Assembly (NCBI GenBank): GCA_963575745.1
Contig: CAUYUJ010000001.1
Coordinates: 2,232,001 to 2,296,000, forward strand
Origin: Prorocentrum cordatum
Lineage: Eukaryota
Length of the DNA stretch: 64,000 nucleotides
Direction of reading: 5' to 3'
The position numbers and the translations under genes are program-made. Within the stretch, counting starts at the first letter, position 1. Every line of letters begins with the position of its first letter. The notes beneath the pieces are model-generated. The model did no database searches. It had not been told where the DNA came from and was given only the letters and a program-made list of their open reading frames with translations. Positions 18,055-49,885 of this stretch are shown here, piece after piece.

Positions 18055-20150
18055 GTGGATGGGCGCCGCCATCTTCCGTTGGGTCGTGCTGCTCGTCTGC
18101 GCGCTGCCAAAGGTGCGGGCTGGCGCGAGCGGTGCAACGAGGGATTGACCGCTCTCAACTGGCTCCATAGCGGCCGCGACGCGGAGCACCTCCCGCAGGT
18201 CGGTGGCGACCCGCCCGCCGTGCAGGCTGCCTCGGTGGACTACCTCTCGAGCCTGTATCGGGAGTTCGAGCTGCCTGCCGCCTACTCGGAGAGGAGCAGC
18301 GCCTGCGAAGCATCCCTGGTAGAGATACTCGCTCAGGCTCCTGGCTGCGCTGGTGACAGCGGTCGGGTCCGCCCCTACAGCCAGCCTCTCGTGGCCTGGC
18401 CCAAGCCGACGAAGGCTGTGTCCACCACCGACGTCGTCTCGGATGCCGACTCCATCGCGCTGCAGGGTTGGAGGCAGACTATGCTGAATTCCGAGTCGGT
18501 CGTTGCGGAGCTCCGCGACGCGCGGGGCATTCAGCGCCCGTGCGTCGATCCCGAGCTTTGCTAGCAGCCTAAGTCTTACGCCCAGTTTTTGAAGCAGCTG
18601 GAGGCTCACGACATGATATCATGGAGGGCCGCCAGTTCTCAGTCTTCGCACACAATCGGTTTATTCGTCGTGGAGAAATCTAACCACATGCTTAGGCTCG
18701 CGTTCGACACTAGGCTGGCCAACTGCAGTTTTACCACGCCGCCAGCCACCAAGCTTCCCACGCCCAGTGCGCGGGCCAGTGTCGATTGCGACGGCAGTTT
18801 CGTTTTTGCACATGGCGATATACAATGTGCCTTCTACCACTTGCGCCTGCCCCCAGGGATGGAGTCGCTGGTCTCGCTGCCCGCGATCTCCAATCGTCAC
18901 ATCGGCCTCGCATATATCAGCGGGAGGCCCGTCGGCATCCACGGGTTTGTGCAGCCATTGGTCACAGTTGTTCCCATGGGTTGGAGCTGGGCCCTTCACT
19001 TTTGTCAGAGCGCCCTTGTTCGTGCCCTAACCGACGCTGGTTTCGACAGTGGTGACATGATCGTGGACGGAGGATGTCCCCGTAAGCTAATCTCTCACTC
19101 CGACGCTATATGCGCTGGATGCGTTGACAATTTCTGCGTTGTGTCAAAAAGCCTTGAGATTGCCACTCGCCGTGCTCGTGAGGTCGCCGACCTTCTAACG
19201 TCCCGAGGTCTGCCTGTCCTGGAGTTCTCGGAGGCCGTCAGTAAGGGTGTCTTCACGGGCTTGCAGATCGACGGTCTCTCGGGTGTCGTTCGAGTTCGGC
19301 CCGATCGCCTCGCGCGTACGCGGCAGGCTGCACTCGGACTTTTACGACGTGGGCGGGCCTCTGCGGGGGCTCTCAGCGTGCTGGTGGGCCACTGTACTTG
19401 GGGCATGGTCTTGAGGCGGGATGTCTTGGCGATCTTCAACTCAGTCTATAGGTTCATCAACGTGGCGGGCGCTCAACCCGAGCCTCTTTGGGACTCCGTT
19501 GTTACGGAGCTTCGTGCCGCTGTTGCCTTGATCCCCCTCTGGAGCGCCTCTACTAGGTCCAGGTGGTCGTCTAGGGTCTACGCGTCTGACGCGCTGACGT
19601 ACGGGAAGGGCGCGTGCGTCAAGGTGATCCCCCCCGACCTGGTCTCGGACGTTAGCCGCGTGGCCGAGAAGTGGAGGTACCACCAGGGCTCCAGCGTGCT
19701 CGCGAGGGCCCACGCCTTCAGCCCCGTTGAGCCCCATCAGGATGCCGCCGACCATGCTCCTCCCGCCGCGTCGCTTCCTGCTGCTGTTGAGTCGTCGTCG
19801 ACTACGTCTAGCTTCTTGGAGGTTCCCGAGGCTGTCTTTGGGTTCGACGGGTGGAAGACGATCCATTCGGGCAGGCACACGCGGCTTGGGTGTGATATTT
19901 TGCAGTATGAAGCCGAGGCCTTGGGGTTCAGCATTCACCATGCCTCGAGGGCCCTCGGAGCCCACCATCATCGCATGTTATGCCTCGTTGACAACTTGGC
20001 TCTAGCCCTCGCGGCCGGCAAAGGGCGGTCGGGGAGCCCGCATCTCGCGCGCGCGCTGAGGCGGCTCTCTGGCGCCACCCTGGCATGCGGGCTGCGGCTG
20101 CTGGTCCGATGGATGCCCTCTGAACGGAATGTCGCCGACAAGCCGTCGAG
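18055..20150 (+). pseudogene. RT-RNase H of the YR element (in-frame TAG 18562-18564)
   Basis: LFVVEKS..LRLAFDTRLAN, GDIQCAFYHL, PMGWSWALHFCQ, CVDNF; RNH motifs ASDA, YEAEAL, LVDN, WMPSERNVADKPSR. Confidence 0.88.
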
Positions 20151-20235
20151 GGAGGGCTTCTTCGTCGGGCCGAGCTTCGAGGACTTCCTGGAGGGGCAAG
20201 TCGCGCGGCGGCCTCGTCGGGCCCAAGGAGGTGAT

Positions 20236-21052
20236 CATGACCGCGAGGGCTCGGAAGACCCACCCTGGGCCCTCCAGTCACTCGCGAGGGAGTCGCTCAG
20301 TGCTGGAGGCGTCAGCCGCCTCGGCCTCCACGGGCAGGAGCTACCACGATTGCGCCCTGAAGCTTCTGAGCTGGGGCCTGTGGGCCGCGCGAGACGTCGC
20401 CTGCCCCGTGGACTTCGACACCGTGCTGGCGGTGTACTTCGCGCGACTGCTCCTGGGCGGGTACGACGGCGCGACGGGCCGCACCACGCTGGCCGCCCTG
20501 AAGCACCATCCCCCTTCGATGCTGGTCGGGAGTCGGCCGCTGCCGCGGGCATTTCGGGCGCTGCAGGGGTGGGCGACGCTCGCCCCGCCCCTGATGCGCC
20601 TTCCGCTGCCTCGGGTGGCGATGTTCACGACAGTGGGCGTCCTCCCGGCGCAGGGCCGCCTGTCCGACGCGGTGTTCGCGCGACTGGCCTTCGACACGTA
20701 CCTCCGCCCGGGCGCGGCCTACCGCCTCACGGCCGCCTCGCTCGTCGCCCCGCGTGTCGGGTCGATGGACGGCTACCAGCACTGGGCCATCCTGGTCAAC
20801 GACGCAGCCAGCGGCAGACCTGGCAAGACGGGGGTGACCGACGAGAGCGCGACTGTGAACGACCCGTCGTTGCAGCTCTCACCCGCGCTGCAGGACTTCG
20901 GCGACAAGGGCGTGGCCAGGCTGCTGCAGCTGATGGAGGTGACGGCGAGGATGGGCATCTTCCCGCTCCGCCTGCCGCCCCTGGTGCCCGCGTCGGCGCC
21001 GGCTGCAGAGAGGACTGCGCCCCCGCTGACCGATCGGTGGAGGTTCGACTGA
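20236..21052 (+). pseudogene. Tyrosine recombinase, internally deleted
   Basis: LAFDTYLRPG (box I Arg) and GKTGVTDES are present; no HxxR or catalytic Tyr segment is visible after VNDPS. Confidence 0.75.
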
Positions 21053-21825
21053 ATAGGCTGTGGCGGCGTGCCCGTTTGCGCGCCTCTGTCTTGCCGTACT
21101 TCGTTACATTGTGTATATGCGTGCCGACTCGCGTCCGATTGGCCTGCGAGGATCGCGGGCTAGGGACAGCGGCCATCAACCTAGCCAGACATCGTGCAGA
21201 GGACGCCTCGGGTCCTCGCGTGGTGCAGATGCTGCTAGGCTGGGTGCGATCATCAGCCGTCTCAGGGGTGCGGGCGTCCTTGCCGCCCGCGACTTGGGCC
21301 TCCAGCGGGGCTCGATGCCGCCGCCTGGACGCCCCGCTTAAGGGCGTCAACAGTGACGACACCAATATTCGCGCCATTCGCGTGGCGAACGCCCTAGCAG
21401 CGTCTGTCTTTAAGTTGATTCGAGAGTGCACGGCTCGGCAGGTGCCTGTGATTTTCTGGCACCCAGAATCAAGCCTGATCTGGCGGCATCCGCTCCTCTC
21501 CTCGCTCCTCGCCTCTGCCTCCTCTTCTTGCTCTCTCGACTCCTGCATGCACGCGGGTCGGGTTCGGCAGAAATTGTTTTTGATCGGATGGGGCGTCCGA
21601 GATCTCGATTGCCTGTCGCGCCGTTGCCTCTGCACCCTAGGCCTGTGTGACCGTACTGGCCGCCGCCACCTTGGCGGCCTAGGGCGTCCTGCGCTGGATG
21701 CCGCTGCACGCTGCTCAGCCCGTGGGCTTCCCTTTCAGGTAGCCACTGCAGGCGCTGACATGATAGTGGCCGCTGCTCGGCAATTATCTCGTGCCGCTAG
21801 ATACAAGAAAATGTATGGTCAATGA
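21040..21825 (+). pseudogene. Degenerate C5 cytosine-methyltransferase-like domain
   Basis: FD*IGCGG (motif I-like, frameshifted), SLPPATWAS (PC-like), FWHPESSLIW (ENP-like), LDSCMHAGRVRQK, Cys/His cluster, terminal GLPFQVA. Confidence 0.55.
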
Positions 21826-22849: not shown

Positions 22850-23433
22850 ACCCTGACCCTACGGATCTGCCTCACGGGTGCCACCGAATCTTTGAAATGT
22901 GGCAAATCCCTTCTGTTTTTGGACTCTGACCCTACGGATCTGCGTGAGGGGTGCCGCCGAATTTCAGAAATGTGGCAAATCCCATTTGTTTTTGGACCCT
23001 GACCCCGCCGATCTGCGTGAGGGGCGCCACCGAATTTCAGAAATGTGGCAAATCCCTGATGTCTTCGCACCCTGACCCAGCCGATCTGCGTGAGGGGCGC
23101 CACCGGATTTCAGAAATGTGGCAAATCCCATTTGTTTTTGGACCCTGACCCCGCCGATCTGCGTGAGGGGTGCTTCCGAATTTCAGAAATGTGGCGAATC
23201 TCATTTGTTTTTGGACCCTGACCCCGCCGATCTGCGTGAGGGGTGCCACCGAATTTTCAGAAATGCGCAATTCCCTTATGTCTTTGCACCCTGACCCAGC
23301 CGATCTGCATGAGGGGTGCCACCGAATTTCAGAAATGTGGCAAAATCTGCGTGAGGGGTGCCACCGAATTTCAGAAATGTGGCAAATCCCATGTGTTTTT
23401 GGACCCTGACCCCGCCGATCTGCGCGAGGGGTG
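22850..23433. repeat. 73-bp tandem minisatellite (~8 units)
   Basis: gatctgcgtgagggg.gccaccgaatttcagaaatgtggcaaatccc... recurs at 22937, 23010, 23083, 23156 and 23229. Confidence 0.95.
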
Positions 23434-23477
23434 TCAATTTTTCCCACCCCAGCAATTCAGAGCATACGCTCAGGGCG

Positions 23478-24410
23478 TGGTGTGTGTGTGTGTGGTGTGT
23501 GTGTGGTGTGTGAGTGTGTGTGTGGTGTTGTGTGTATGTGTGTGTATGTGTGTTGTGTGTGTGTGTTCTGTGTGTTATGTGTTTGTTGTGTGTGTGGTGT
23601 GTGTTGTGTGCGTGTTGTGTGTGTTGTGTGTGGTGTGTGTGTGTGTTGTGTGTTGTGTGTGTTGTGTGTGTTGTGTGTGTTGTGTGTTGTGTGTTGTGTG
23701 TTGTGTGTGTTGTGTGTGTGTTGTGTGTGTTGTGTGTTGTGTGTGTTGTGTGTTGTGTGTTGTGTGTGTTGTGTGTTGTGTGCGTTGTGTGTGCTGTGTG
23801 TGTTGTGTGCTGTGTGTGTTGTGTGTTGTGTGCTGTTTGTTGTGTGTTGTGTGTGTTGTGCGTTGTGTGTTTTGTGTGTTGTGTGTGTTGTGTGTGCTGT
23901 GTGGTGTGTGTTGTGTGTGTTGTGTGTGTTGTGTGTTGTGTGTGTTGTGTGTGTTGTGTGTCTTGTATGTGTGTTGTGTGTGTGCGTGTTGTGTGTGCGT
24001 GTGCGTGTGCGTGCGTGCGCGCGCGTGCGCGTGCGTGCGCGTGCGTGTGCGTGCGCGTGTGCGTGCGCGTGCGTGCATGCGCGTGCGTGCGTGCGTGCGT
24101 GCGTGCGTGTGTGAGTGCGTGCGTGTGTGCGTGTGTGCGTTTGTGCGTGTGTACGTGAATGCGTGTGTGCGTGTGTGCGTGTGTGCGTGTGTGCGAGCGT
24201 GCGTGCGTGCGTGCGGGCGGGTGTGTGCGTGTGCGTGTGCGTGTGCGTGTGCGTGTGCGTGTGCGTGTGCGTGTGCGTGTGCGTGTGCGTGTGCGTGTGC
24301 GTGTGCGTGCGAGTGTGCGTGTGCGTGTGCGCGTGCGCGTGTGCGTGTGCGTGTGCGTGTGCGTGTGCGTGTGCGTGTGCGTGCGCGTGCGCGTGTGCGT
24401 GTGCGTGCGC

Positions 24411-24454
<44 letters not shown>

Positions 24455-24646
24455 TTGTGTGTTTGTGTGTGTGGTGTTGTGTGTGTTTGTGTGTTTGTGT
24501 GTTTGTGTTTGTGTGTTGTGTGTTTGTGTGTGGTGTGTGTGGTGTGTGTGGTGTGTGTGGTGTGTGGTGTGTGTGGTGTGTGTGGTGTGTGTGTGGTGTG
24601 TGCGGTGTGTGTGGTGTGTATGTGTGGTGTGCGTGTGTGTGTGTGT
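23478..24646. repeat. Compound (GT)n/(GCGT)n/(GCGTGT)n microsatellite
   Basis: Directly visible. Confidence 0.97.
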
Positions 24647-26483
24647 TGGGAGGGGAGGGGCGGGGGGGGGGGCACATTCGCGAGATGGCGCCGCTTGTTG
24701 GCTCGTCTTTGCATTTGCGCAGGCCCGGGCAGAATTGGCCTCCGCGTGGATCCCGGCCACCGCGTTCGGACTCGGCTTGGTTCGCGGGCGTGGCTGCGCT
24801 GTGCTGTGACCGTCGTCTCTTTGGCCCTTGGTCGCGCGGTTCGCGCAACCTCCCTCTGAAGCAGGAGTAGGGATGCCCGCGCTGGCTTGGCAGTGGAGCC
24901 GCTTTCGCACCGGGCGGCGGGCCCGTTCACGCCCGCCTCGGGAGCTGGCGCAGAAGGGCAGCCAGGCGTTGCTCAGCAGCGGCCCCCTCGCGCTCGAGGC
25001 GGTGAGCGCCGAGACCACGAAGGCATACTTTGCCCGCAGGCCCGGCGAACGCGCGGGCCGGTCGAGCAGCTCCGGGGCGGTGCGTAGCAGAGTGAAGCCC
25101 AGCAGGAGGCGGGAACGCGCGTGGCGGAGCGGCCGTCCGCGCAGGGGAGCGAGCGGAGGGGCGAGATGGAGGCCGAGAAGACCTGCGGCCCCGCAGGCTT
25201 GGATCCTCCCCCTGGGCGCGACGGCGATCCTTGAGCTCCTCGGCCCGAGGGGGCGGGGGAGCCCCCGCTGGCGAGGCCCCGGCAGCTGCGGCGTCTGCAG
25301 GCCGATGGCGTTGGGCAGACCGAGGCCGTGGCCGTGGCTCTCAAGAGAGAGCTCGGCGACACCACGGCGCCCGAAATTTGTCGAACGAGCACAAGACGGC
25401 ATCAGCATAAATCTTAGGAGCTCCGTGCGGATTGCTTCGATCTGCTCGCGAGGGGTGGACCTCCAACAGTTTCTGCTTATGCGGGAGATCGAGCAAAACA
25501 GGACAATGACGAAGCCAAACGCCAAAACGATGACGCCGCCGACGGCGCCGACGAGCCTTACCTTACTTCGTCGTTCGTCGTCGTCGTTCGTGTTTCTCTC
25601 GTTGTCCACTGCCCCCACCACCAGGCCCCGGCTCGCCCTCTCCCGCGGCCCCTGGTGGGGCCTCGGATCCGCCCCATGCTCCTTCGCAGCCATGCCCTGG
25701 TGTTCGGGGCTGTTTCGTCTTCTTCTTTTTCTTCTTCTTCTTCGCCCTCGCTCCGTTCGCCACCCGCCCCCCCCCACACCCCCTTCCTGAAGAGGCCGTC
25801 GTGGAGGCCCTCAAGAGCCCTTCCTCCCCTCTCCGGCCTTCCTGCGATGGCCAGGGCTGGGCCAGGGTAGGGCCTTTCTGGATCGCCGTCCGTCCGGCTG
25901 TCCTGCGAAAGAGGCCGCGCTTCCGCGGACCCTCACCGGATCCGAAAGGGTCCAACCAACGAACCGACTTGCTGGCCCCCCCCCTCACCCACCCCGCCCC
26001 CAGCACCCCGCGCCTCGTGGCCCAGCCGCGCAGGATGCCACGGCACGGCGCGCGGCCCTTGTCCTCTCCGTGGCCGCGGCTCGTTCGCTCGTCTCTGGCC
26101 CCCTCCCCGCGGCCACGTCTTAAGGCACAGCTGCCCCTGGTCCCATCCTTCAGTCGCTGCCAGAAGTCTTCGTCACTCGTTCGCTCGTCGCCCTTCCCCC
26201 TCCTGCCTCATCGCGACGCCCCCCCCCCCCCCCAAAAGGCTCCAGGATGGCCCCGAGATGCTCCCCCTCTTCGCTGTGCTCGAGCAAGGGCCAGGCCACG
26301 CGTGCTACGCGTTTTCGATTGTCATCGCTCCCAGATCCCAGCCCTGAGACGGCTCCCAGTGGCCTCCCAAGTGGCCCACAACCGCCCCAACATGGCTCGA
26401 ACACGCCCTCGGAGCCCACGCGGGCAGCCGATTTGTGATTCTAACACGATGGCCCAGGGAACCTCAATACGCACAGGCAGTCC

Positions 26484-26505
26484 GTCGTACCCATTTTGGC
26501 TCAAG
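26484..26505 (+). other. Genomic relict dinoflagellate spliced leader upstream of RPL34
   Basis: gtcgtacccattttggctcaag versus DCCGTAGCCATTTTGGCTCAAG (20/22), 66 nt before the ATG. Confidence 0.9.
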
Positions 26506-26571
26506 GCCGCGCCTCTGAGCCACGCTAGGGTTTCTGCGGACACCGAGCCTCAGCGCGCACGGGAAGCAGCG

Positions 26572-27108
26572 ATGGTGCAGCGCTTGACATACCGGAAGCA
26601 CATCCGCTACAACACCAAGGGCAACAAACAGAGGAAGGTGAAGACACCGGGTGGGAGATTGGTCTTCCAGCAGCTGAAGAAAAAGGCGTCGCCGCCCAAG
26701 TGCGGCGATTGCGGCAAGGCGCTCATCGGGATCCCTTGCTTGCGGCCGAAGGAGTACAGGCTCCTCAAGAGCCGCGAGAAGCGCGTTAACAGGGCCTACG
26801 GCGGGTCCCGCTGCGCCAGCTGCGTGCGCTCGCGGGTGATGCGGGCGTTCCTCATCTGATGGGCAAGTTTCCCACCACCATTGCCACAGGTAGGACGGGG
26901 GAGAAGAGAAGATGTGGAGGTCCTCCTCCTCCTCCTCCTCCTCCTCCTCCTCCTCCTCCTCCTCTTCCTCCTCCTACCAATTCTAGTGGTGGTGGAACAT
27001 CGGCCCATCATCATCGAGGAGCAGAAGTGCGTGAAGCAGGTCTTGGCCGAGAAGATGTCTCAGAGCAAGGAGAAAGACGCGCCCAAGAGGAAGAAGGCCA
27101 AGGCCTGA
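26572..27108 (+). CDS. RPL34: 60S ribosomal protein L34 (eL34) retrogene, interrupted at 26857-27015; possibly a pseudogene
   Basis: MVQRLTYRKHIRYNTKGNKQRKVKTPGGRL...CGDCG...RAYGGSRCASCVRSRVMRAFLI (26572-26856) joined to EEQKCVKQVLAEK...KAKA* (27016-27108). Confidence 0.93.
26857..27010. mobile_element. 154-bp TIR element (MITE/Introner-like) in RPL34
   Basis: Ends tgatgggcaagtttcccaccacca / tggtggtggaacatcggcccatca are imperfect inverted repeats; TSD TCATC at 26852-26856 and 27011-27015; internal (CCT)n. Confidence 0.85.
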
Positions 27109-27191
27109 GCGGCTGGACCACGCACGCCGAGGATCCCTGCGGCCGTGCATTGCACTGGTCGAAGCTCGCGGACATCCACAAAATACATAGA

Positions 27192-27350
27192 CCTCCTCCT
27201 CCTCCTCCTCCTCCTCCTCCACCTCTCCTCTCCTCCTCCTCCTCCTCCTCCTCCTCCTCCTCCTCCTCCCTCCTCCCTCCTCCCTCCTCCTCCTCCCTCC
27301 TCCCTCCTCCCTCCTCCCTCCTTCTCCTCCTCTTCCTCCTCCTTCTCCTC
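27192..27350. repeat. (CCT)n-rich tract
   Basis: Directly visible. Confidence 0.9.
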
Positions 27351-28651
27351 CGCGGCGGTAGTTGGCGGAAGCAACACGAGGGCTGTTCTGCTGGCGGGAG
27401 CTCGGCGTCAGCAAGCGGGAGTAGCAGATGCCGGCCAGGAGATATCATGCTTGAGAGTGCCGAGGTTTTTGGAGCGGGGCAAGAGTGTTGCAGACGCTGG
27501 TAATCTTCCTCGTCGGGCTGGATTGTTCGACCGTTGCAGTGGCCGCAGCGATGCCATCTCCATTCGCCGTCGTAGGATGTTTGTCTTCAGGCCCCCGCCC
27601 AGCCGCAAGTATTTTGTGTTGGCTGAGGTCGCAAACGGGTCAAGGCGCATACCAAGAGCAGGGGGCCGCGCCAGCGAGCTCGGTACCACGCCACGATACA
27701 CAGAAGAGTAACAAATCAGTGAGGGACTATTGGACGGCATCCCCCGATGATGGCCTTTGGAGGTGGGCGTAGGGCCTCCACTGGTGCTCCTCCCCGCTCC
27801 TGTCCGTTGTCGAAGACGCCTACGGCGAGTCACCGCCGCCCCCTGCCTTTTGGAATCGCCCATGTGGCCGAGTGTTGTGGCAAGAGCTCTGCCAAGCTAT
27901 CGGACCATGTGTTCCCCCAACCGTTGTGAAACACCTTCGGGCAACACTTGGGGGAGGATGGCGGGGAAGATGGGAAGCTCAGGAGGAGGAGGAGGAGGAG
28001 GAGGAGGAGGAGGGGGCATCCTGGAACATCTGGAGGCACTCTTGGGGCCTCCTAAGGCCGCAAACATTGGAAACAAACACGGTTGGTCAGTGGTGTCTGA
28101 TTCCTCGACGTGCGGAAAGCCATGCGAGACGGCCCAAGAGTCGCGCGACGAGCCACAGGAGATCTGGCAGCTGGGGCTCCAGCAGGAGAGCCCGAAGAGG
28201 CCTGAGGACACTCCACTCGGTGCATGGCGGCACGGCGGCGGATCCTCAGCGCACGGCCCCGAGGATCGTCCACGGGCTCGAGGACCCGCGGGGGGTGCAG
28301 GCTCGGGCCTCCCCGGCGCCTGGGAGGGGCCAGGGGATCGAGGCCTCCAGGCTTCGGGGACGCGCCCTGGCTCCCAGGAGCGTCGAGCGTCTTGGCATCG
28401 CTCGGACGTGTGCATTCTTTTCGGCGGGGACCCTCGAGAAGCATCCTGGCTCCTCTTGGGGAAAAGGAGCGCACGAAACCGAGAAATGGTCGGGGCATGG
28501 ACGTCTGAGCGGTGGCGAGGTCAAGCCTGAGATGCGCGGCACACCGCCACCTGTCGGATTGCCAAGTCAACGGACGGCCGGGTGGTCGTCGAACGAGGGC
28601 GTGGGGCGAGCCCGTGCTCCATGCTTCACAAGGCTCAAAGAGAGACGGATC

Positions 28652-28823
28652 TCGGGGCTGGACAGAACCCCCAATAGTGACACGTCGATTAGTGAATTGT
28701 CCGTTTTCGGTTTTCGAGAGGGCGCCGTGGCCGTCAGTTTCCAGGCTTTCGCCCGCCAGATTTGGGCCCGAGGTCGTTTTCACTAAACCACGTTTTGCTA
28801 AAGGGGGTTCTGTCCATCCCCGA
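28652..28823. mobile_element. 172-bp MITE
   Basis: TIR tcgggg(c/a)tggacagaaccccc...ttagtgaa (~45 bp, imperfect); TSD GGATC at 28647-28651 and 28824-28828. Confidence 0.88.
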
Positions 28824-29768
28824 GGATCGGGGGTTGCTACAGGCGCCCCTGGCCGAAGGTACCCCCAGCTTTTCGCTCCATGTTGGAGCCCCTGGGGCCC
28901 TCTGGGCCTCGTGAAGGGGGCTCTGGAGGCCGTGCGGGGCCTCCCGGGAAATCCTGGGGGCACCTTGGCCCTGGTGCACTTCCAGCAACACGCAAACAGA
29001 GGCGGGCGGCGCGGCGAATAATATGAGGATGGCCTGGAAGGAGGAGGAACGAGGCATGCTGAGGGAGCAAGGAGGAGAGAGCGGCACGAGCGAGCAGCGA
29101 GGGGCGAGGAGGAGGGCGGGAAGGGGGCAGGAGAAGGCAGGAGGACGAGGAGAAGAAGCATCGGCGAGAGCGGGAGAAGCATGGAGAGCAGCAGGAGGAG
29201 GAGGAAGAGGGAGGGGGGAGGGCGGCCCAGTCCAGCACAACGTTCTCGTGATTGGGCGGATGAGTCAAAGATCCAAGCCATCCATGATTGGCCTAGTCCG
29301 AAATTGCCGTCGCAATGGCAAAACCGTCGTTCGCGCTTGGCGTCACGGTCGGCCCGCCATGAAACGAGGAGGATCGGTGCAGACGCGCACGCATGTGGTA
29401 TAGCGAAGGAGCGTATCCACCGACAGGTGTGCTGTTGTATAGATGTGTTCGTCCTCACGTACCTGCTGTCTCTGTCATGTGCCGATCGTGAAAATACCAT
29501 CGTCGTTGTTCACTACCGGGTTGGGTTGGGCTGGCTTGGTGGGTAGTCAGTTGTCCACCCAGCATCTGCAAGTTGCCGACGTCCCCGCTCGCCTGGGCTG
29601 CCGCAGCAGCACCGCGTGTGTCTGCCCACCCTGGTACACACATTGTAAAAGATGCAAAGCGTTCGTGGGCCAAGCTGCTGAGGAGTCTGCTCCGTACCAG
29701 GCGGATCATCAAATGAGGAAAAACATCAAAAAACCACATGGGGCGTTCCAAAAGGTGCCTTGCATGCG

Positions 29769-29805
29769 ACCATCGCCATTTTGGCTCAAGCCATTTTGGC
29801 TCAAG
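29769..29805 (+). other. Tandem DinoSL: full 22-nt leader plus 15-nt relict
   Basis: accatcgccattttggctcaag (20/22 to DinoSL) immediately followed by ccattttggctcaag. Confidence 0.93.
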
Positions 29806-29939
29806 GCAGCTGGCCAGGTCAGCTCGGGCCTGTCTTCAGGCTCGGCCCTCGACACACGGGTTTGGGGGCAGGCCCTTTTGGCACAACCTCATCCAGTCTC
29901 ACTTTCGCAAGTTGTGAGTTCAGAGTCACCCGCGCAGCC

Positions 29940-30767
29940 ATGGGAGATGCCGCGTCTGAGTGGTTATCGGCCTTCGTCACAGGACAGTTCGCTGCATTGA
30001 CGAAGACGGTCACCGACACGAACAGCCAGCTGACGGGCCAGATCAAACAACTGGACGGACGGATGGCTGCACTCGACATCAAAGTAGAGCAGATGGAGAT
30101 ACGTATCCAAGCTTCAGAAGAAGCTATGAAGACAGCATCAGTGACAGCCTCCAGCACGCTTGGCACAGACAGGACGAAGCGGGCTAGAGTGGGTATGACA
30201 ACTGGGACAGACACCAGCGATTCATGTAGAATGTGGGCGAGTGGATATCCACGCGCTGTTCTTGCTGCCGCGGGACAGACGACCTGGCAGCAGCTCCAGC
30301 AAGGAGCACCGAGCCACCTCGTGGACGGCACCACAGCGCAGTTTGCAAAAACGAGTCAAAGTTTCTCCATCCACTTCAAGAATGAGGACACGGCAAAGAA
30401 AGTCAAATAATGGTTGCAGCTTCAATGGAAGGATGCGCGAGACGGATCATGTCATGCTCTACGCATTCGCACCGACCTCCCAAATGACGTCCGTCATCGA
30501 CAGAGACGCATGTCACATTTACGGGCGCCGATCGTTCAGTTCTTGAAGAATAACAAGAAGTACCAAGCCGACTACAAGATCGGCGCAAACGGGTTCCGCA
30601 ACGAGTTCTTCATCCGCACATCCGGTGACTTATTCATCTTGGCAAAGGGTGAACAGGACGGGCTCGGCCGGCTGGTGCTCAAGCCCAGCAAGAGCGACCT
30701 CGCCTTCTGGGGCATTCCCGTAGACCAGATGCAGCAGTGGATTGACGGATGCGGCAGTGCACGCTGA
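29940..30767 (+). pseudogene. LINE ORF1 (coiled-coil N-terminus; in-frame TAA 30408-30410)
   Basis: MGDAASEW...LTGQIKQLDGRMAALDIKVEQMEIRIQASE heptads; the frame continues to 30767 (LRIRTDLP). Confidence 0.7.
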
Positions 30768-37154: not shown

Positions 37155-37329
37155 TTGGGCGTTGCGTAATGGAGGGGTCATAAATGGGGGGGTGGCGAGG
37201 GTGGTCCGAAAAGGTACCCAAACGGTACCTAAACGAGCCCCCTGGGGGTCCGGAGGGGCTCGAAAGGGGCACGAAAGAGGACCGTTTCTGACCCCCCCAT
37301 TTATGACCCCCCCATTAAGCCACGCCCAA
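37155..37329. mobile_element. 175-bp MITE
   Basis: TIR ttgggcgt.gc.taatgg.ggggtcataaatgggggg (~37 bp); TSD TTGGC at 37150-37154 and 37330-37334. Confidence 0.9.
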
Positions 37330-39934: not shown

Positions 39935-42900
39935 ATGGCTGACTCCGCTGAAGGCGAAGTGTCGTGCGAAGTAGTCGTGGAGGAGATTTCTGGAGCGCGA
40001 GCACGAAGTTCTTTTGAAAATATCGGCGTTGAGGGCGACGCGGTCATGGAGCAAGTGGCGGGGGCATCATATCCATCTCAAGACTCCGTGGTGGAGATAG
40101 AGCAGGTTGCTGCTACTGGTGCTGCGAAGGCATCGGGGAGAACTGCTTCATGTGCAGCGAAGACATCAGAGAGAAGCGAAGAGCTGAGGAACAACTTTGT
40201 TTCGGATTTGTCCAAGAAGAGCACAGAGAAGCAAGAGAGGCCACAGCACCCGACGTCGACGCATGGGGGTGCGGAGATCATAAGAGAGATGTGCGCGCCT
40301 GCCAAGAAGGGTCAACCTAGCTCTGACCCCAAGCAACTGTCAGCAGTGGTTCCAGAATGGAAAGCGGACAATGCGCACCTACCCCACCACCCCATAGAGC
40401 AGTCCCCTTCTCACTATCCTTTCCCCCCTCCCTCTCCTCCCCCCTCCTTCCTGCCATGGGGGGACACAGCAGGGGGCGGCAGAGGGGTCGGGGGGAAAGG
40501 GGGAAGGGAGGAGGGCAAGGAGAGAAGGGTGGAGCGGGAGGAGGGGGAGAGAAAGAGGAGGGGGTGGGGTAGGTGCGCCATTTCTGTTTTCCTGCAGCAG
40601 ACGCTGAACGAGCCCCACCAGCCAGGCTGAACTGGTCCAAGACTAGAACCACGATTCCTGTCGGCGATCCGGCGCACAGAAATGACCGAATTCAATGCAT
40701 CGGCAGGGGGAAGGGGGGAGGGGACCAGTGCGGGGGAGGGAACGAAGAGGGGGGAGGGCAGGGTGGCGGGGGCGGGCACGGGGGATTGTCTGGGGAAGAA
40801 GCGAAGGGAAGGGGAGGAGAGCGGAAGGACATGTCGATGCATGGCCATGCCGAACACCCGAATTCCGGCACATTTTTTCAACACCATACATGCACATCGT
40901 TACAGTTTGGATGCGCCGCGCCCGCTTGCTACCATCGCACGGCCGACATCTTCTCGCATGCAATAGTTGGCACACATCGGGCGGTTGATCGATGCGCGAT
41001 GTTCGAAGAAGATCGTAGGCGTCAGTGTCAGATGCGCAGTCAACCCGCGTAATTAATATGGGCACCCTTTCCTAGGGTACCCTTGCATCCTTGCTCTTTC
41101 CGGCCCATCCTTAGCGACGTTCGCCGGCCAACCTCGCTCGAAAAAAAATCGCATGGGCCTCCAAGGCCCTCGCATCTTTATCGCGCATCCTTATAATACA
41201 GGCTGACTGTAGCATTACTTGTTCCATCAAGAAGCCAGGGCCATCTGGGCGACAAGAATGGGAATGGTGAGGGAATGGTTTGCACCGCCGATGGTTGCAC
41301 AGACAATGTTGAGCATGTTCTGGATTCGTCACGGAAGGAGGCGATATCTGCTGATGCCTCGCAAAGAACTAAAGAGTCTTAACGATATTCCCGCGCATGC
41401 ACCTCCCAACTTGCAGTGAGCACGCGATGACAGCACGAACGTACAACCGTGAAAGTTTCACAGAGAAAGTGTCCGAAGTTAGTGGCGAGGATGACTCAAG
41501 CGGGAAAGAACTGAAGAAACCGAGGCCCCCTAATGGCGCGCCCGCCTCGAGCGCAGGATGTGCGTCGATTTGGTGGTCAGTCCACGGCTGAAGGATTGGT
41601 GTCGAGAATGCGATGATGCACTTCCCCGTCGCATTCTTGCGCGCAAAATCACAGGTTCCATGCCAGCGAGCACGCCATATAATGTGGTGTGTATTCCTGC
41701 GCGGGGCCTTGTATCAACCGACACATGCGGACCGAAGCGTTCATCATGAGAATGCACAGCCCGGAGACGCTGTCGCCATCGTCCAGGGTTGACACGTTGT
41801 CCGACGCTGTTGTGGCGTCCACCGCGGCCTACCAAGAGTGGGTACCGCCTCTTCCTGCATGGCACCCTTTGGAGATGCGCTGCCCCCACTCCGTTTTCAA
41901 GATTGGGCTCGGTTCAATCTTCATCGCATTTTTCATTTGATGTGCCGTTACGTCCACGTTTGCCTATCATTCCCGAGCGCGTCGCTCCGCCGGTCCTGGT
42001 CCACCAAGCTTCGCCGTCCGCACCTCGGTCCCCAGTCGTTCGCGTCCCGAGCTTTTCCGAGCATCCCACCCCATGGAGCGGAGCGACACGCTGTCCGCTG
42101 GCGTAGCGCGCCGCCGGGGCCGCGCCGCGACGCGCCAAGCAACAGTTCCCGACCGCAGGCACGCACGCTGGAGCCTCCGAGGCCATGACCGCCCCCGTGC
42201 GCCCCCCCCCCCTGGGTTACACGTGCGACCCAGCCCCAGGGAGAAAGAACAGCGATTGACCAATCTGCCACTGCCGCGTGAGAGCCTGCGAGCAAGAGGT
42301 CGTCGTCGTCGAACGAGGGCTTGGGGCGCACCCGTGCTTCATGACTCAAGGGGTGGCTGGGCGGCGCAGACAAGCGCTTCCACCGCCAGCCACCCCGAAC
42401 CCCTCGCGGGGAAAAGAGAAGAGGGCAGCGGTGCGAAAATCGGAGGTTCGGGGGTGAGTCCGACGTGAAACGGAGACCCCCCCTACCGGGAAATCGATTT
42501 CGGTTTCGGGTTCGTGTCGTGCGTGCCGTGCGTGCGTGCGGACGAGGCGAAGCTGCGTGGGCGGGCGAGACGAAATCCTCCTGTGGCTGGGCCGCGGCTG
42601 GACCAAATGTTTCTCCTCCGGAGGCTGGTGGCCCGCGGTGTCCCGCCAGTGTCCCGCTGGTGTCTCGAAATCTTCCTGTGGCTGGGCCGCAGCCGGACCA
42701 AATGTTACTCTTCTGGCGGCCGGTGGCCCGCGGTGTCCCGCCGGTGTCCCGCTGGTGTCCCGTGGTGTCCGCCGTTGCTACGGCGAAGTCAAGACACATG
42801 ATTATCCTCCTCCCGCCCGTCCAGCGGTGGCTCGCGGTGTCCCGCGGTGTCCCGTGGTGTCCCGTGGTGTCCCGTTGAATGAGATCGATAGTGACATTGA

Positions 42901-45900
42901 TAGTGAGATTGATAGTGAAATCGATACTGAGTTCGATACTGAGATCGATGTGGTGCCCCGAGGTGTCCCGCGGTGTCCCAAAAAGTGAGACCGCTAGTGA
43001 GATCGATAGTGAAATCGACAGGTGTCCCGTGGTGTCCCGTGGTGTCCCGTGGTGTCCCGTCGAGTGTGATCGATAGTGAGATCGATAGTGAGATCGATGT
43101 GGTGTCCCTAGGTGTCCCGTGGTGTCCCGTTGAGTGAGATCGATAGTGAGATCGATAGTGAGATCGATAGTGAGATCGACAAGTGTCCCGTGGTGTCCCG
43201 TGGTGTCCCGTTGAGTGAGATCGATAGTGAGATCGATTGAATCAGATGTTGGTTCCCCCTCCTCTCCCCCCACACCCTCCTTATCACCCGAAGGGTGGTC
43301 GCATAGTTATTTCATTATGGTCGCGAGGGGGAGGAAGGGAGGAAGGGAGGGAGGGAGGGCGAGCGGGCGATCCCAGCGTCTCTCCACAGGACTGCTATTA
43401 CTTATCGCTGTGTCACTTGGGGGCCTAGCGGGGATGAGTCGGCTTGTGTCCCCCGAGAAGCCGGCCCTGACGGTGTAGCCGCGGCCCCAATCCGCTGCAG
43501 ATTGAGCCGGCTCGCGGCCCACGGGGCCACTCGCAGGTGCGTTCTGCGTCGGGCTTTGATAATGTATGCATGTTGATCCTGCATCGCTGGGCCTCGGACA
43601 AGGCGGGGCAATGGAGAGGCGCGGGAGGCGGAGGGGGGGGGCGGGGGCGAGGGAGGGGGAGGCTCCGATGACCGCTGCGACGTAGGCGTCCTCACCCGTG
43701 GGGTGAGCCACGTGCTCTGGGGACGCCTGGGAACCAGGGGCCACTTCTTGGGCACGAGGGCGGCGGGCCTCGAACCGGGCCCTCTCGGCCCCATGGCAGA
43801 AAGATCCGACAGACCTTGCACGAGGAGGGCGGCTGCGCGAGAGAAAGCCAGCCCGGCATTGGCGCGCCAGTGGCGCGCCAATGCCGGGCTGGCTTTGCCT
43901 CGCGCGGCGTGGGGAGCCCTCTGCGGCCTGGCAGCAGCCGCGCGGCTTCGGTGGGGCCCCGCGCACGGCCGAGCCCGAACGCCGCCACGGGCGCTGACCG
44001 ACGCGCGTGGCAGCTGTCCCGTGCGAGGCTCTCGGATAACTGTTTAGAGCCCCCGGAACCTCGAACCAGGACGGTGGCTTGGGAGGGAGGGAGGGAAGGA
44101 GGGGGAGGATGCAGGGAGGGAAGGAGGGGGAGGATGCAGGGTGGGGGGGGGGAGGGAGGGAGGGAGGGAGGGAGGCGGAGGTCCAGGGGCCCGCAGGCGA
44201 CTCCGTAATCTGGATGTGGCACAGCGGCCTCGAGCTGGAACCGGAGGACCCGGCGTGGTTTGAGAAGCCGGTGTCGGGCAGCTCGGACACGGCGATCAGC
44301 GTACCCAGATATCCGACAATATAATTGCTCCGATCCGGCGTCTTTCGGCCCATGGGGCTGTGGAGCCAGTTCACGGGCCCCAGCACCATCAAGAACGGAT
44401 CGGGGGCGGGAAGTTGGCCCCAGGGAAGGGTCCAAGACCTCTGGAGCCGCGGATGGAACAAATCACGTCGGTGGCTGTCAAGGTGGCCGTTTTCTTCTTC
44501 ATTGTTTTGCCGATCGGCGCGGGCCCTGGCACCCCCTTCCCCCCCATGGATCGGGTATATGGTTAAGGGGAGCCGGTTAGTGATTGGGCCCTGGAGCCCA
44601 AAATATGGACTGGAATCGCTAAACCAGGTTTGCAGTAGACAGTTGTTCTTCGTGTGACGGCAGTTCCAGTTAGTGGAATCGGGCGGGGGGGTCCCCCAGT
44701 AGACATCACTAAGCCAGGTCCCGTAGCCCAGTTCCGCCAACGCCCGAATGGAGTAGATCTTGGCTGTTTTTGACGCATGTTTCAAGCAGGTGGAGCCTCC
44801 CCCATAGGATGCACTGGTGCAAACAGTCGCATCAAGCAAAGGTCCAGAGCCAGACCACCACCCCATTTTCGCTCAATGTCGAAACGCCGAATAAGAAAAC
44901 GCTCGCAAGGTACAGTTCAGGGAGGCCGTCAGCGGGGAGACTCACTACGCCATCAAGTTCTCCGAGCCCGGGAGGCGTTCAGAGGTCGAAAAGATACCGA
45001 CACCGCTGTTTTCCCTGAAGAGCCCTCGCCGCCATGGCTGGATTCTCCTTGGACCGTACTCTGGCAGAGTCGAAGACCGAAAAACGCCATACACATGAAA
45101 TGTTGGCTCTCCGCGCGGATTTCTTGGATCCCCTCTGGGCCCCCTCTGGCGGCGCCTTTGGCGCCGCCCCTGGCACGCTCTGCGCACCAGGGAGAGGGGT
45201 CCAGCACAAATCCAAGAGATCCGCGCGGAGCGCCAAAAGGTTCTGCTCATGGCGTCTTCGATTCTTTGAGAGAGGTCTGGGGAGCAGCGGCATCGGTACC
45301 CTGTTTGGCTCTCTAGGTATAGGTTCCGGACGAGCGGTGGCGGGAGGGGCGAGAAGGACCAGAGCGAGTTCAGGGCGAAACGCATTTCCTTTGCAGAGTC
45401 TTCTCTTTTGATTATCCTCCCTCACCTCCCTCCCCCCCCGCCCCGCCCGCCCGCCTCTTGATTCCATCTTCTGGCCCTTCGTTTTCCCACCTGGGCCGCC
45501 TCTTTCTTGTTCCCACCTCCTCTTTCTCTCTTTCCTTTACCGTTCTGGCGCAGAAGGGATGGGAAGCTCTGGTGCAGGATGAGTCCAGGGCCTGGGGGGG
45601 GGTACAGTGGAGGCCCATGCCAAGAAACACCCTGCTTGCCTCCGGGGTGCCCTGGGTTTCTTGGGGTTCCATGGCTTTGCGGCGGGAAGCATGACGCTCC
45701 CACACCAAAAGTTCATGGACATCCTGGGGTCTCAGGGTTGGGCTTTTTGTGGAAGCTTTCTTGTGGACTGGCCTCCACTGTATTGACATTAGCTTGCAAA
45801 GGTGACGGTGGTGTCCCACCAGTGGTTAGCATGGCGAAGCACTTGCTGCATCGTGCTACACAGCGTTTCGCGCCAACACGACCAGACGGTAGGGTGTATA

Positions 45901-48900
45901 GACACGGGGCTATATTGTTGCAATTATTGGGTCTTATGTTTTGACGTCTCGTTGGCCCTCTCCCCTCCCTCCCTCTTTTCCCTCCCTCTACATCCCGCTC
46001 CCCCTTCCTTAGATGATCACCTGCAGTCTTACCCCTTTCCACCCCACGCCCCTTCCCAGTCGTCCGTCCTCCCCCTCCACCCCCCCCCTCCCCTCCCTGC
46101 CCTCCCTGCCCGTTTCGTCCTTCCCCATGCCCCTAATTGGGGGCGGCCCGCCTAACTGGCCCAGTGGCCCCCGAAGGGACCAGCGGATCGGGTACGCGTT
46201 GATTGCAGTTACTTTCATGTCGTTGACTCTCGGGCCGTTGATGGCCTTGGAGCAGGGAGAACTTGTGCGCGGCCTGCTCAGCGCAGTCACCCAGAACACG
46301 ACCCAGCAGAACATCATCGCGAGATCTGCTGGCGAGGTGCTGGGCTTGGATCTGAAGCATATTTGCGGGGTGTCTTCCCCTCCCGTTCCTCCCCCAGGTG
46401 CTGAAGTACTTTTGGCCGCCTTTCGTCGGATGTCTCTTCGTGTTCCTGTTCATCCCGCCCAGGATTCTCTATGTCGGGTTCTGGCCTAAGACGCTTTCGT
46501 CGTTCGGCAGGGGATTTGGTGGCAGCACGCACCGTGAGGCACGGATTGTTGTAGCCGCGTTTGCTTTTGCTGGGTTCTTGCTTGTCGTAGTTGCGTGGTC
46601 TTACATGGGGGCGACATTAACGGGCATGGAGCCAGTTCTTGAGCAGACCCTGGCCATCGCGGACCAGCAGCTTGTGGAGATCACTGCGATGGGCAGCGAC
46701 ATGGACCAGTACGCGAGCCTTTCGAATGATTCCTCCGCTCTCACTGAGGCCGTCGCGTCGTTCACGGCCTTGGCCGCCGATGCGAGGGACGCCAGCAGCA
46801 AGGCAGAAAGCTTCTTGACGAGCGCAGTTTACACAAGTGACCGAGGGCTCAACACTGATAATGATGCTGGCGCATGTAGACTACACAGTAGCAAGTACTC
46901 ATCGTAGGCATGCCGCAGCCAACCGAGTTCCCATCAAAGCAGCGCAAGCGGCCACGAGAGGCACACTGGGGCGAGCCGAAGCGAGCCGAACTCCCGCCTA
47001 GGCAGGACAAGCCGTAGCATGCGGGGCTAGTGGGGGCCAGCGACGGCGAACCAAGCGGCCGGGCGGGGTAAGTCGGGGCACAAGCGTGGCAGACCGAGTT
47101 CCCAGCAGAGCAGTGCGAGCGGCCGCACGGGGCTTCTCAAACGGGTAGCGGTGGGCCGGGGCCAGCCGAGCCCCCACACAAGCAGAGCAAGCAGCCGAGC
47201 GGTGCTACTCGGGGCTGGCCGTGGTCAACCACATGCCTGGCAAGGCTGGGCAAGCGGCCACGCGGGGCCAGTCAGGGCCAGCGGCGGAAAATTGAAGCCC
47301 CGCGCGAAAAGGTAGCATTTCCTTTAGACAGACATGCAGGCCCATCAGTTCAAGCTCAGTCTGGCAACGGCCAGCGCCGCGGCCTCCCTGTAAAGTCCAA
47401 AAACCTGAGGGAGGGACGGAGGCAGAGGGAGGGAATGAGGGAGGCAATAAAGTTGCCCTAGGCCATGCGTTGCATGTGGTTGGCCGTGGCTTCAACAGGC
47501 GAGGCGATGGCCTTTGTGTTCATGCAGCTTGTCCTGGTCACCTACGCAATGGCTTTCGCGGCATCTCTGAGCAAGAGGCCACACCTGATGCTCGGGGTTC
47601 ACTTCGCAGGGCTGTTCGCTCTGCTGCTCCAGCTCCTCGCTGGCACGATGTACGGAACAATGCTTGCCATCTTCAATGGTGCTTGGGGAACAAGAGAGTG
47701 CCGATGCCGCTACCTCTCAGACCTCTCCCAGAGATCGTTCTGACCACAATTTCGAAGCGAATCCAGGCGTGGCGACGAGGGATGGGTAGCGGTACCCGTA
47801 TTTTTTCCGGAGGTATCGACAACGAGATGTCAGAGACGCCTGACGTGAGTGCGGCTCTCAACGGGACTGATTATTCCTCCCAAGCTGCTGAGTTCACCAA
47901 GCTGATCGCCTACTGCAGCGAGGACGGCGGCGACGTCGCCATGGGAGCGACGTTTGCAGCGGTGGCGTCCTCTATGGCGAACACAGGCTCGGGATGAAAA
48001 CAGTGCGCCCAACCTTGCACATGATCCTCCCCTCCTGCTGTTTCGCAAAGGATCATCTATCAATACCGCTACCTTCCCCTTGTGTTCGCCTTTTTGGGCC
48101 TCCTGGGAGCCCCTCGTCACCGCGGCTGGATTCGCCTCGAAATTCTGGTCAGGAGGCATCTCGAGATAGGTCAGGGGAGTAGCGGTCTCGGTACCTTTTG
48201 TTCCCCCAGCCGGAGTCGATACAGCGCCGACGGGACTTGAAATGGCATAAGTTGCGCCGAGGCCGAGGTTTGGACTGCTTGGTCTAAGGCCTCTTCCTTA
48301 TTCTCGCCCCCTCCCTCCCCACTCCTGCCTCTCCCCCCTCCTTTCCCCACGCCATTCCTCTCCCTCCCCTCTCCTCCTCATCCCCGTGGCCTTTCCCTCC
48401 CCTTCCTCCACTCCCTCAACGGGGAAGCGGCGAGGAGGGCACCAGGCGCAGGCCCAGGTTTGCGACCCCGCGTCAGGGGACAGCGTTCCCATCAGCTTCC
48501 CCAGCGAGGAAGCGGCGGCGAGCCTCACCGTGGACGAGATGAAGACGTTCGTGGCAGTGGCGTCGGATCAGATCGAGGAGCGGCCTCCTCCCGTCCCCGG
48601 CCGGAGTGCGCCAGAGCCGTCAGATTGCAGCTTGCGGCTATGAGGCTGCACGGCTGACCCCCTTGATGATTTCAGGGCTTAGAGCCGAGCAGTGAAGGTG
48701 GGAATCATTCGGGGCAAGCACTGCTTGGATAATGCATACTACCTTGGTGAGGCACCCCGATAACAGTGTATAGTTGCATTGCTGTCTTGGTGCGTGTGGA
48801 GGCATACGAGATTGAGGGCGGGTCTGAGGACGCGCCTAATGCCGTATTAGGGAAAGTGCCTGGGGCAATGTCTGGGGGGCGCGTTTGGGATTGATTCCAA

Positions 48901-49885
48901 TCCCGACTTACCGACTTAAGGGCAAGGAGGGCCCACCTTAATAATTCTTTCGACTTGGAAACCGACAAGTTCGCATGAATGCATGCCGCTTCTGGTGGTT
49001 ATAACAAGACGCCAGGTACGCAAAATTCACGTATTGAACTCTTGATTTGGCGGCGCTCCCGCACAGGAGCTCCTACTAAACAGGGATGCGTTGGCAAATG
49101 TCATTGGCAACGTGGATGAAGTGTTGATTGGGTTGTCGATCATGCAGAGGCTGTTCAAGCTGATGGATTGCACAACCATGAAAATTGGCCTGTACGGCGT
49201 AGGGGACACATTCCGCGAAGAGGTCCTGGCCCCTTTCGAAAAATTGTACGTTTGCAACATGGTTCAGTGTGGTTTTCTGTGTTGCGTCATTGTCGTATCT
49301 GCAGTGGCAAAGTACATACTAGATAGGCCGAGGAAGTACTGGCACTGCGCAAAGAGCGGGCGATGGTTCCGTTTCCGCTTTGCCTACAAGGCACATTTGC
49401 GCGTTCTGGAGAAGGATTCCACGTTTTTATCCCGGCTGGGATTGATGAGGAAGCTAGCGGTCTGGAGGCGCCCAGAGTTCACTGCGGTACATTTCTGGTC
49501 GGAGATGTCCCTCGCCTTCATCGTAATGGTTTTCTTCGTGTTCAATCAGGGGCTGTTGCTCTTGACGTTCTCAAGTTCCGACTCGCCTAAGGCGATGATG
49601 GTAGTCGCCGAGGTTCTCATGATGCTGTCTGCCCTCCTCGACGTTGTCTTTGTGTACACATCTCCTTCTCGCCGGAGCGAGTTGGTGTCGGCGAGTTTGT
49701 ATGTCGGTTCCCAGGGCTGTCCAAATGGCAGGCTATCCCAGGGGCGTCGGTGCGGGATGTTGGCGCTGAGAGCAGATAGAACCACAGATACGCAGCCGCC
49801 AGACATGGAAAAGCACGATTCTGCGGGGGAAGGGGGGGGGAGGAGGAAGTGGTGCTACGCGACACCAGAGCGCAATCTCGCGTGA
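39935..49885 (+). CDS. Multi-exon gene for a large multi-pass membrane protein (boundaries approximate; core 46180-49700 best supported)
   Basis: In-frame joins across introns 46337-46397 (GE|VLKYF), 47679-47812 (FNG|IDN) and 48578-49066 (QIE|ELLLN); several hydrophobic helices alternate with long helical loops; the upstream exons are tentative. Confidence 0.55.
42440..43307 (+). mobile_element. Non-autonomous Helitron-like element, copy 2
   Basis: a|tcggagg...ccgggaaatcgatttcgg start; ggtgtccc and 12-bp gagatcgatagt repeats; end ttatcacccgaagggtggtcgcatagt|t. Confidence 0.7.
44500..44905 (+). repeat. Dispersed repeat (shorter copy ~50742-50955)
   Basis: attgttttgccgatcggcgcgggccct, gtttcaagcaggtggag and caatgtcgaaacgccgaat are shared by both sites. 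Confidence 0.85.
44980..45314. mobile_element. Degenerate TIR element (family also at 47685-47810 and ~48165-48207)
   Basis: Left end aaagataccgacaccgctgttttccc is an imperfect inverted repeat of right end ggggagcagcggcatcggtaccctgttt. Confidence 0.55.

Follow-up and report, generated by a model that had tools for sequence, protein, structure and literature searches.

Can a gene whose coding sequence has been split by a transposon-like element still yield its full-length protein when exact removal of the element offers no splice signals? The question is raised by a copy of the ribosomal-protein gene RPL34 in the dinoflagellate Prorocentrum cordatum (assembly GCA_963575745.1, contig CAUYUJ010000001.1, forward-strand positions 2,232,001 to 2,296,000; this 64,000-nt stretch is the window, and all positions below are counted from its first nucleotide), in which a 154-nt element with terminal inverted repeats (TIRs) has been inserted between the residues AFLI and EEQK. 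We find that an abundant transcript is identical to the window copy in its untranslated regions (UTRs) and coding sequence and is without the element. We put at roughly 0.72 the probability that the element is a transposon-born, non-canonical intron of the type described as introner elements in Amoebophrya, that it is exactly removed, and that it lies in a retrogene that was intronless at birth.

A transposon-like element interrupts an otherwise intact RPL34 gene

The features of the locus are as follows (X1, X7 and X14 are sequencing runs, described in the next section):

26491-26505, + strand: relict dinoflagellate spliced-leader core in genomic DNA (motif match; RNA contigs begin at 26486-26494)
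26506-26571, + strand: 5′ UTR of the window RPL34 copy (X1 contig record 1 spans 26494-26623 with 0 differences, including the start of the coding sequence)
26572-26856, + strand: RPL34 coding part 1, 95 codons, with ATG at 26572, ending ...RAFLI (zero-difference contigs X1 record 7 and X7 record 19)
26852-26856, + strand: first TCATC copy, the 5-nt direct repeat or target-site duplication, in codons L94-I95
26857-27010, + strand: non-autonomous TIR element of 154 nt, resembling a miniature inverted-repeat transposable element (MITE), with no open reading frame of its own and opening with an in-frame TGA
26857-26880, + strand: left TIR, with perfect tip TGATGGGC
about 26922-26975, + strand: (CCT)n microsatellite core, forming the loop and inner stem of the predicted hairpin (26911-26981 were masked in read mapping)
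26987-27010, + strand: right TIR, with tip GCCCATCA
27011-27015, + strand: second TCATC copy; either copy could be the one removed with the element, and the two are indistinguishable
27016-27108, + strand: RPL34 coding part 2, EEQKCVKQVLAEK...KKAKA, starting EEQKCVKQ (zero-difference contigs X1 record 8, X14 record 15 and X7 record 21)
27088-27090, + strand: private codon R120 of the window RPL34, within coding part 2
27106-27108, + strand: RPL34 stop codon TGA
27109-27180 (end approximate), + strand: 3′ UTR of the window RPL34 copy (X14 record 15 extends to 27179 with 0 differences)

The original prediction, made from the sequence, had described a 154-bp TIR element with a TCATC target-site duplication (159 nt in all) that splits AFLI|EEQK and begins with an in-frame TGA between two coding halves that look intact. 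On recheck all of its sequence numbers proved correct: the TGA at 26857-26859 is the sole stop within the 159-nt insert, both coding sides are otherwise intact, and deletion of 159 nt in silico yields a 125-residue RPL34 reading ...RAFLIEEQKCVKQ... across the junction. The joined product is identical to a transcript-derived RPL34 (P0001) at 123 of 125 residues, and the junction motif F-[LIVM]-[IVL]-E-[ED]-Q-[KR] is unbroken in 115 of 120 homologues among the matches listed. Membership in the L34e family is indicated by a full-length match of Pfam PF01199 (Ribosomal_L34e) to exon 1 (model positions 1-94 of 94, E = 6e-40) and by the conserved C-terminal continuation, both of which are present. 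The nearest annotated protein, an unnamed Prorocentrum cordatum product, differs from the window copy at 3 of 125 residues. Within the window, tblastn matched RPL34 at this locus only, with all other hits at E values of at least 0.39. The G+C content of the window, mostly 0.51-0.68, fits the published mean of 59.7% for the P. cordatum genome (PMC10666404).

The element has the structural features of a MITE: TIRs, a target-site duplication, a small size (154 nt) and no open reading frame. Its tips, TGATGGGC and GCCCATCA, are complementary at 8/8 positions; the arms match, ungapped, at 19 of the 24 outermost positions, and a repeat search lengthens them to 55 nt at 71%. The pre-insertion target, TCCTC-ATC-GAGGA, is itself a palindrome. 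A 191-nt stretch folds with a minimum free energy of -81.9 kcal/mol (z = -4.15), and equally good folds were obtained in 0 of 200 shuffles. In the predicted fold the element tips form an 8-bp helix, with more stems inward; GUUCCUC (26847-26853) pairs with GAGGAGC (27016-27022) in a 7-bp exon-exon helix; and AUC and UCAUC form a 3x5 internal loop, every possible cut site being placed in this loop or in its closing pairs.

RNA lacks exactly the element and one repeat copy

Twenty-four sequencing runs are listed for this locus, of which 20 contain part of 26480-27140 and none contains all of it. RNA mapping covered four of the 24, from four studies: X24 consists of raw reads from stranded RNA libraries, X14 of contigs from poly-A RNA, and X1 and X7 of contigs for which no kind is on record; runs with small shares of the sampled words (X19-X23) were left out. 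A joint was listed if at least three reads had it, and contigs were counted as bridging under a 31-letter rule.

The results with X24 indicate that RNA from RPL34 is joined across the position of the element with a gap of one defined length. All 262 reads mapped are oriented as expected for plus-strand RNA in usual stranded libraries, 86 of them jump exactly 159 nt, and no other joint is listed. Thirty-two of the 86 have the joint at 26851>27011, with 5 ambiguous letters, which corresponds to exact removal from the window copy (...TTC CTC ATC GAG...). Loose ends of alignments pass from 26856 directly into exon 2 letters in 11 X24 reads, two X1 contigs and two X7 contigs. Read depth shows the same gap: in X24 the exon bins flanking the element reach 102 and 96, and the bins within it 1.12, 0.69, 0, 0, 0 and 1.27, where the three zero-depth bins are mostly masked repeat (26911-26981) and uninformative, and where the value of 1.27 in the last bin arises because the 32 joint reads resume at 27011.

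In X1, depths of 596 and 351 in the bins that touch the element were considered as a sign of a retained intron. This candidate was rejected: each bin holds one exon position, and the loose ends consist of exon letters or, at 27010, of adapter-like letters, which we take to be sequencing adapter. No element-bearing contig of this locus is shown for X1, X14 or X7; the element is overlapped solely by an X7 contig with another flank, considered below.

Transcripts carry the letters of the window copy

The expressed RPL34 copies differ at 13 listed variant sites and at two more read from loose ends, and 14 of these 15 are synonymous, a sign of selection that speaks for the intron reading. The sole nonsynonymous variant, 27089 G>A, changes R120 to K. 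The window copy has R120, and K120 is found in 9/9 same-length members of its 90% protein cluster, the annotated P. cordatum protein included (the tenth member, of 127 residues, was left out of this comparison). G at 27089, encoding R120, is present in 21 of 38 X24 reads. Reference alleles make up 28/70, 31/90 and 24/84 of X24 reads at 26814, 27043 and 27060, respectively, shares that are close to the share of the joint with the CTC letters (32/86).

Contigs with zero differences from the window copy cover both exons. Beyond the X1 contig over the 5′ UTR and start, they comprise, for exon 1, X1 26737-26843 and X7 26712-26844, and, for exon 2 with the 3′ UTR, X1 27014-27148, X14 27012-27179 and X7 27011-27165, all three with the G of R120. 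The depths of these contigs in exon 1 and exon 2 agree well, at 3604 and 3066 for X1 and 257 and 214 for X7. The 3′ UTR of another paralogue departs from the window after 27117 (7 X24 reads). The original prediction had named RNA reads with the private letters or UTRs of this copy as the check to be made, and the outcome is that R120 and the UTRs are transcribed, that the element is almost uncovered, and that 32 reads have the copy's own junction letters. We infer that these transcripts stem from this locus and not from an identical empty copy.

The six removal registers lack canonical splice signals

The TCATC repeat allows six registers for removal of 159 nt, with ends TC-CA, CA-AT, AT-TC, TC-CA, CT-AT and TG-TC. 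GT/GC/GA-AG or AT-AC ends occur in 0/6 of them, as had been predicted for GT/GC/GA-AG; U12-type signals (AT-AC ends, RTATCCTY donor) are absent from every register; and both halves of the Euglena nonconventional code N3-CDG...CH'G-N5-6|R are satisfied in 0/6. Structured introns of known types were also considered and rejected. A tRNA-type bulge-helix-bulge has two 3-nt bulges with a 4-bp helix between them; in the predicted fold, by contrast, a 7-bp and an 8-bp helix are separated by a single 3x5 internal loop. Rfam returned 21 matches to the element with E values up to 1, all far under the gathering score (best, mir-671, 29.3 vs. 65 bits), which leaves, for the known Rfam families (self-splicing introns, miRNAs), sub-threshold miRNA-like hairpin matches only. 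A canonical dinoflagellate introner was rejected in turn: in none of the six registers do the duplication or the tips of the element supply a G[T/C/A] donor and an AG acceptor, and a GA-AG pair elsewhere in the element is unused in RNA.

That GA-AG pair had been put forward as a way to keep the frame. The pair exists (26858-26986, 129 nt), it is the only frame-keeping GA-AG pair, and its canonical spliceosomal use would give RPL34 with a 10-residue insert, LVVEHRPIII; GA donors are, moreover, common in dinoflagellates (10.1101/2020.10.14.339549). However, no such joint is listed in X24, where three reads would suffice, or in any contig, and none of the aligned RPL34 homologues has an insert at that position. 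The proposal stands as a description of the sequence and fails as a description of the RNA, and we give canonical use of this pair next to no weight.

A relict spliced leader points to a retrogene

Relict spliced leaders are an established mark of genes re-integrated from mature mRNA (cited in PMC10666404, the supplement of which prints the sequence of the dinoflagellate spliced leader). Because a relict leader core is present in genomic DNA at 26491-26505, upstream of the 5′ UTR, the RPL34 copy was intronless at birth: the leader marks it as a retrogene, mRNA-derived and without introns when formed, in which the element arrived later. The leader lends further support to the suggestion, one of two options in the original prediction, that the locus records the birth of an intron.

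Elsewhere in the window, two tandem relict spliced-leader cores occur at 29776-29805, just upstream of an open reading frame with ATG at 29941 (29941-30410, about 156 codons). The tandem arrangement fits a gene retroposed twice. A Pfam search of the frame behind the tandem cores (29682-30407) gave no match.

Alternative explanations

Several observations weigh against the reading of the element as an intron. The main rival to it is that the element is a disruptive MITE, that this copy is a null allele (silent, or degraded via its TGA), and that the gap-free RNAs originate in an identical duplicate, or else in strains or cells without the insertion. Several RPL34 paralogues are expressed, the reads containing three or more haplotypes, and in such a multi-copy family a dead copy would be tolerable. 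The other 54 of the 86 X24 joint reads have the joint at 26853>27013, with 3 ambiguous letters, and come, according to the loose ends, from a paralogue that has CTG where the window copy has CTC; the same joint is found in one X1 contig. No read crosses an exon-element border in the four mapped runs, such that a precursor of the element-bearing copy is unseen and the insertion is known from the assembly. The best share of sampled words in any listed run is 0.68. The link between junction, R120 and UTR is drawn from allele fractions and from a single 168-nt X7 contig rather than from read-level phasing, and that contig has 13 letters of the end of exon 1 before 27011, under the 31-letter bridging rule. 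The window holds no more copies of the element (23-nt TIR patterns with up to 3 mismatches; blastn-short), and scans of metagenome contigs, where dinoflagellate genomic DNA is probably rare, gave 0 hits each with exact patterns of 22 nt (left arm and inner part) and 21 nt (right arm). The sole hint that the element is multi-copy is one X7 contig that overlaps 26868 to about 26907, in the inner left-arm sequence, with at least 95% match over about 40 nt; its 255 preceding letters differ in the flank and end in the tip TGATGG at the same offset. From its sequence, this contig probably represents a further member of the element family, residing in a different transcript or locus, and as such it hints at recent activity and hence at a possible insertion polymorphism. 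Finally, the bare pattern of direct repeat plus inverted repeat is in itself unremarkable: a test for an 8-nt TIR with a 5-nt direct repeat immediately outside it, at a spacing of 60-1200 nt and with low-complexity cases dropped, found it five times in the window, whereas 20 first-order Markov simulations gave 1.5 on average (range 0-3), and the pattern alone is therefore weak evidence. What goes beyond chance is the placement of the element, at the very point where taking it out restores a conserved protein, and a fold far better than those of shuffled sequences.

The disruptive-MITE account nonetheless requires a second locus identical to this one over about 520 nt, both UTRs included; in the other paralogues, by contrast, many synonymous sites and the 3′ UTR are different. 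The protein of such a twin is found neither among the 10 members of the 90% cluster, none of which is identical to the window copy's product, nor as a 100% match among the 120 homologues listed, an absence the value of which depends on the completeness of annotation. The window haplotype without the element is, in addition, found in 4/4 mapped runs, from four studies. The original prediction had left the choice between an intron and a recent knockout of one gene copy undecided; the exact 159-nt gap, the junction letters, R120 and the UTRs in RNA, and the almost uncovered element favour the intron, and the knockout stays in place as the chief competitor, an unlikely one. Reverse-transcriptase template switching between the TCATC copies during library preparation would confine the gap to cDNA. 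Such switching classically occurs where a stable hairpin lies between short direct repeats, and its signature is present here. However, template-switch artefacts usually make up a minority of molecules, and X24 coverage of the element is at most about 1, vs. about 28-31 reads of the haplotype; the gap recurs in four libraries of different studies, and the coding sequence stays intact. We regard this source of the gap as quite improbable. Still less credible is a misassembly of the element into RPL34. The lack of reads over the exon-element border in the mapped runs would agree with it, but a misjoin would not yield a perfect 5-nt duplication that keeps the copy's CTC allele, nor an insert of exactly in-frame length.

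A model for removal of the element

According to our preferred reading, that of a transposon-born intron, a DNA transposon of MITE-like form, 154 nt long with imperfect inverted ends around a (CCT)n core, would have entered the TCCTC-ATC-GAGGA site of the RPL34 retrogene and duplicated 5 bp of the target. Within the pre-mRNA its inverted ends would pair to form a long hairpin, the base of which would set the two TCATC copies face to face in the small internal loop beside the 7-bp exon-exon helix. An excision activity independent of GT/GC/GA-AG signals would then take out the hairpin and one TCATC copy (159 nt), the pre-insertion frame would be regained, and full-length RPL34 would still be made from this copy. 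On this model the hairpin may guide the cut by presenting both repeat copies side by side. As to the enzyme, our guess inclines modestly toward a spliceosome with relaxed boundaries and away from an endonuclease-ligase pathway. The proposed removal of a hairpin matches the model drawn for the introner elements of Amoebophrya (PMC7789003).

We lean slightly toward the broader proposal that free-living core dinoflagellates, besides Amoebophrya, have an RNA excision pathway that reads a transposon hairpin and its target duplication and not splice signals. If this proposal is correct, any such MITE landing in a coding exon would be erased from mRNA at once, and the birth of an intron would need no splice sites. 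Published gene models limited to G[T/C/A]-AG would systematically miss such introns, and prediction based on GT/GC/GA-AG would truncate or miss the genes that hold them; the protein collection contains no model of the window copy's product. If the element is indeed a transposon-born intron, the RPL34 locus would be an unusually clean record of intron birth, in which the leader marks the intronless start, the duplication marks the insertion, and the RNA marks exact, signal-free removal. The Amoebophrya-type hairpin intron would extend to a bloom-forming, free-living dinoflagellate, with a bearing on intron gain in intron-rich genomes, and the element, being short and lodged in a strongly expressed gene, would serve well as a substrate in the search for the excision machinery. 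Since the phenomenon has been published for Amoebophrya, this one locus is of more limited value.

Relation to known introns

Introner elements of Amoebophrya are defined by inverted repeats of 8-20 nt, direct repeats of 3-5 nt, non-canonical ends and lengths of 40-1000 nt, and their authors suggest that they are removed otherwise than by standard splicing (Farhat et al. 2021, PMC7789003). The tests used for that type have the following outcome at RPL34: at least three junction reads (86, of which 32 have the copy's letters), non-GT-AG ends, a hairpin of inverted repeats, and a direct repeat within 3-5 nt. In common with the introner elements of Amoebophrya A25 and A120, the RPL34 element has non-GT-AG ends, a hairpin of inverted repeats, a direct repeat that overlaps the boundary and leaves the cut ambiguous, no transposase, a length in the published range, and removal backed by RNA sequencing (PMC7789003). 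The two differ in host and in target: the host here is a free-living core dinoflagellate and not a syndinian parasite, with a single locus known, and the host gene is a highly expressed ribosomal-protein retrogene, whereas Amoebophrya introns favour less conserved genes (PMC7789003).

Other known introns share some of these properties. Introners of Symbiodinium and Polarella (Roy et al., 10.1101/2020.10.14.339549) are likewise TIR elements in which a target duplication of 4-8 nt makes the intron, and a 5-nt class exists; however, they draw G[T/C/A]...AG from the duplication or the element, whereas the RPL34 element does so in 0/6 registers. Introns with identically repeated intron boundaries (IRIB) in Crypthecodinium and other dinoflagellates (Mendez et al. 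2015, PMC5032977) have a border repeat of 2-9 nt that is retained once in mRNA, as here; that repeat always holds AG|G, making these essentially G..AG introns, whereas TCATC holds neither signal. Nonconventional introns of euglenids have variable non-canonical borders, a structure joining the ends and a suggested MITE origin in common with the RPL34 element (PMC6221363, PMC12501133), but they belong to an unrelated lineage, and the element does not follow the Euglena code; they represent a functional analogue.

For P. cordatum itself, the genome paper uses the same definition of introners (inverted repeats of 8-20 nt, direct repeats of 3-5 nt), sought them only inside annotated introns, and set its gene tools to GT/GC/GA donors (Dougan et al. 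2023, PMC10666404). No intron lacking GT/GC/GA sites is described in the passages searched of that paper or in two of its supplement files. In its review history a reviewer queries a share of AGG acceptors of 79.7%, vs. at least 93% in other free-living species, and the authors answer that the difference is not technical (PMC10666404). This low share could reflect unrecognised non-canonical introns. Our literature search found no paper describing such signal-free hairpin introns in Prorocentrum, with one review treating Prorocentrum and non-canonical introns separately, and the portions consulted of a 2025 introner survey (PMC12130899) do not mention Prorocentrum. The RPL34 element most likely extends a known kind of intron, in print only for Amoebophrya, a parasitic relative, to a new lineage.

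Other features of the window

Several other repeats were noted. A (CCT)n-rich tract, the same microsatellite as in the core of the element, lies at 27192-27350, right after the RPL34 3′ UTR, with a complementary (GGA)n tract about 700 nt on, at 27981-28016. A MITE-like element of 175 nt and of a different family occupies 37155-37329; its inverted ends span 39 nt at 92%, and the 5-nt direct repeat TTGGC flanks it. At 43832-43908 there is a near-perfect palindrome with 38-nt arms that are 92% complementary and 1 nt apart, and foldback-type inverted repeats with arms of 46-98 nt at 70-83% are found at 28651-28824, 40359-40592, 45070-45269 and 47684-48208.

A Pfam search of 14 long open frames of the window gave no match for 13 and, for one, at 49046-49882 on the + strand, a sub-threshold match to the Der1-like family (DER1; E = 6.7e-4, 20.1 bits vs. 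a cutoff of 26.6). The 1086-codon open frame at 18565-21822 on the + strand has no Pfam match at E <= 0.001. Long GT/GC-rich microsatellite arrays extend over 23400-24870, and their translated frames consist of CV/VR runs.

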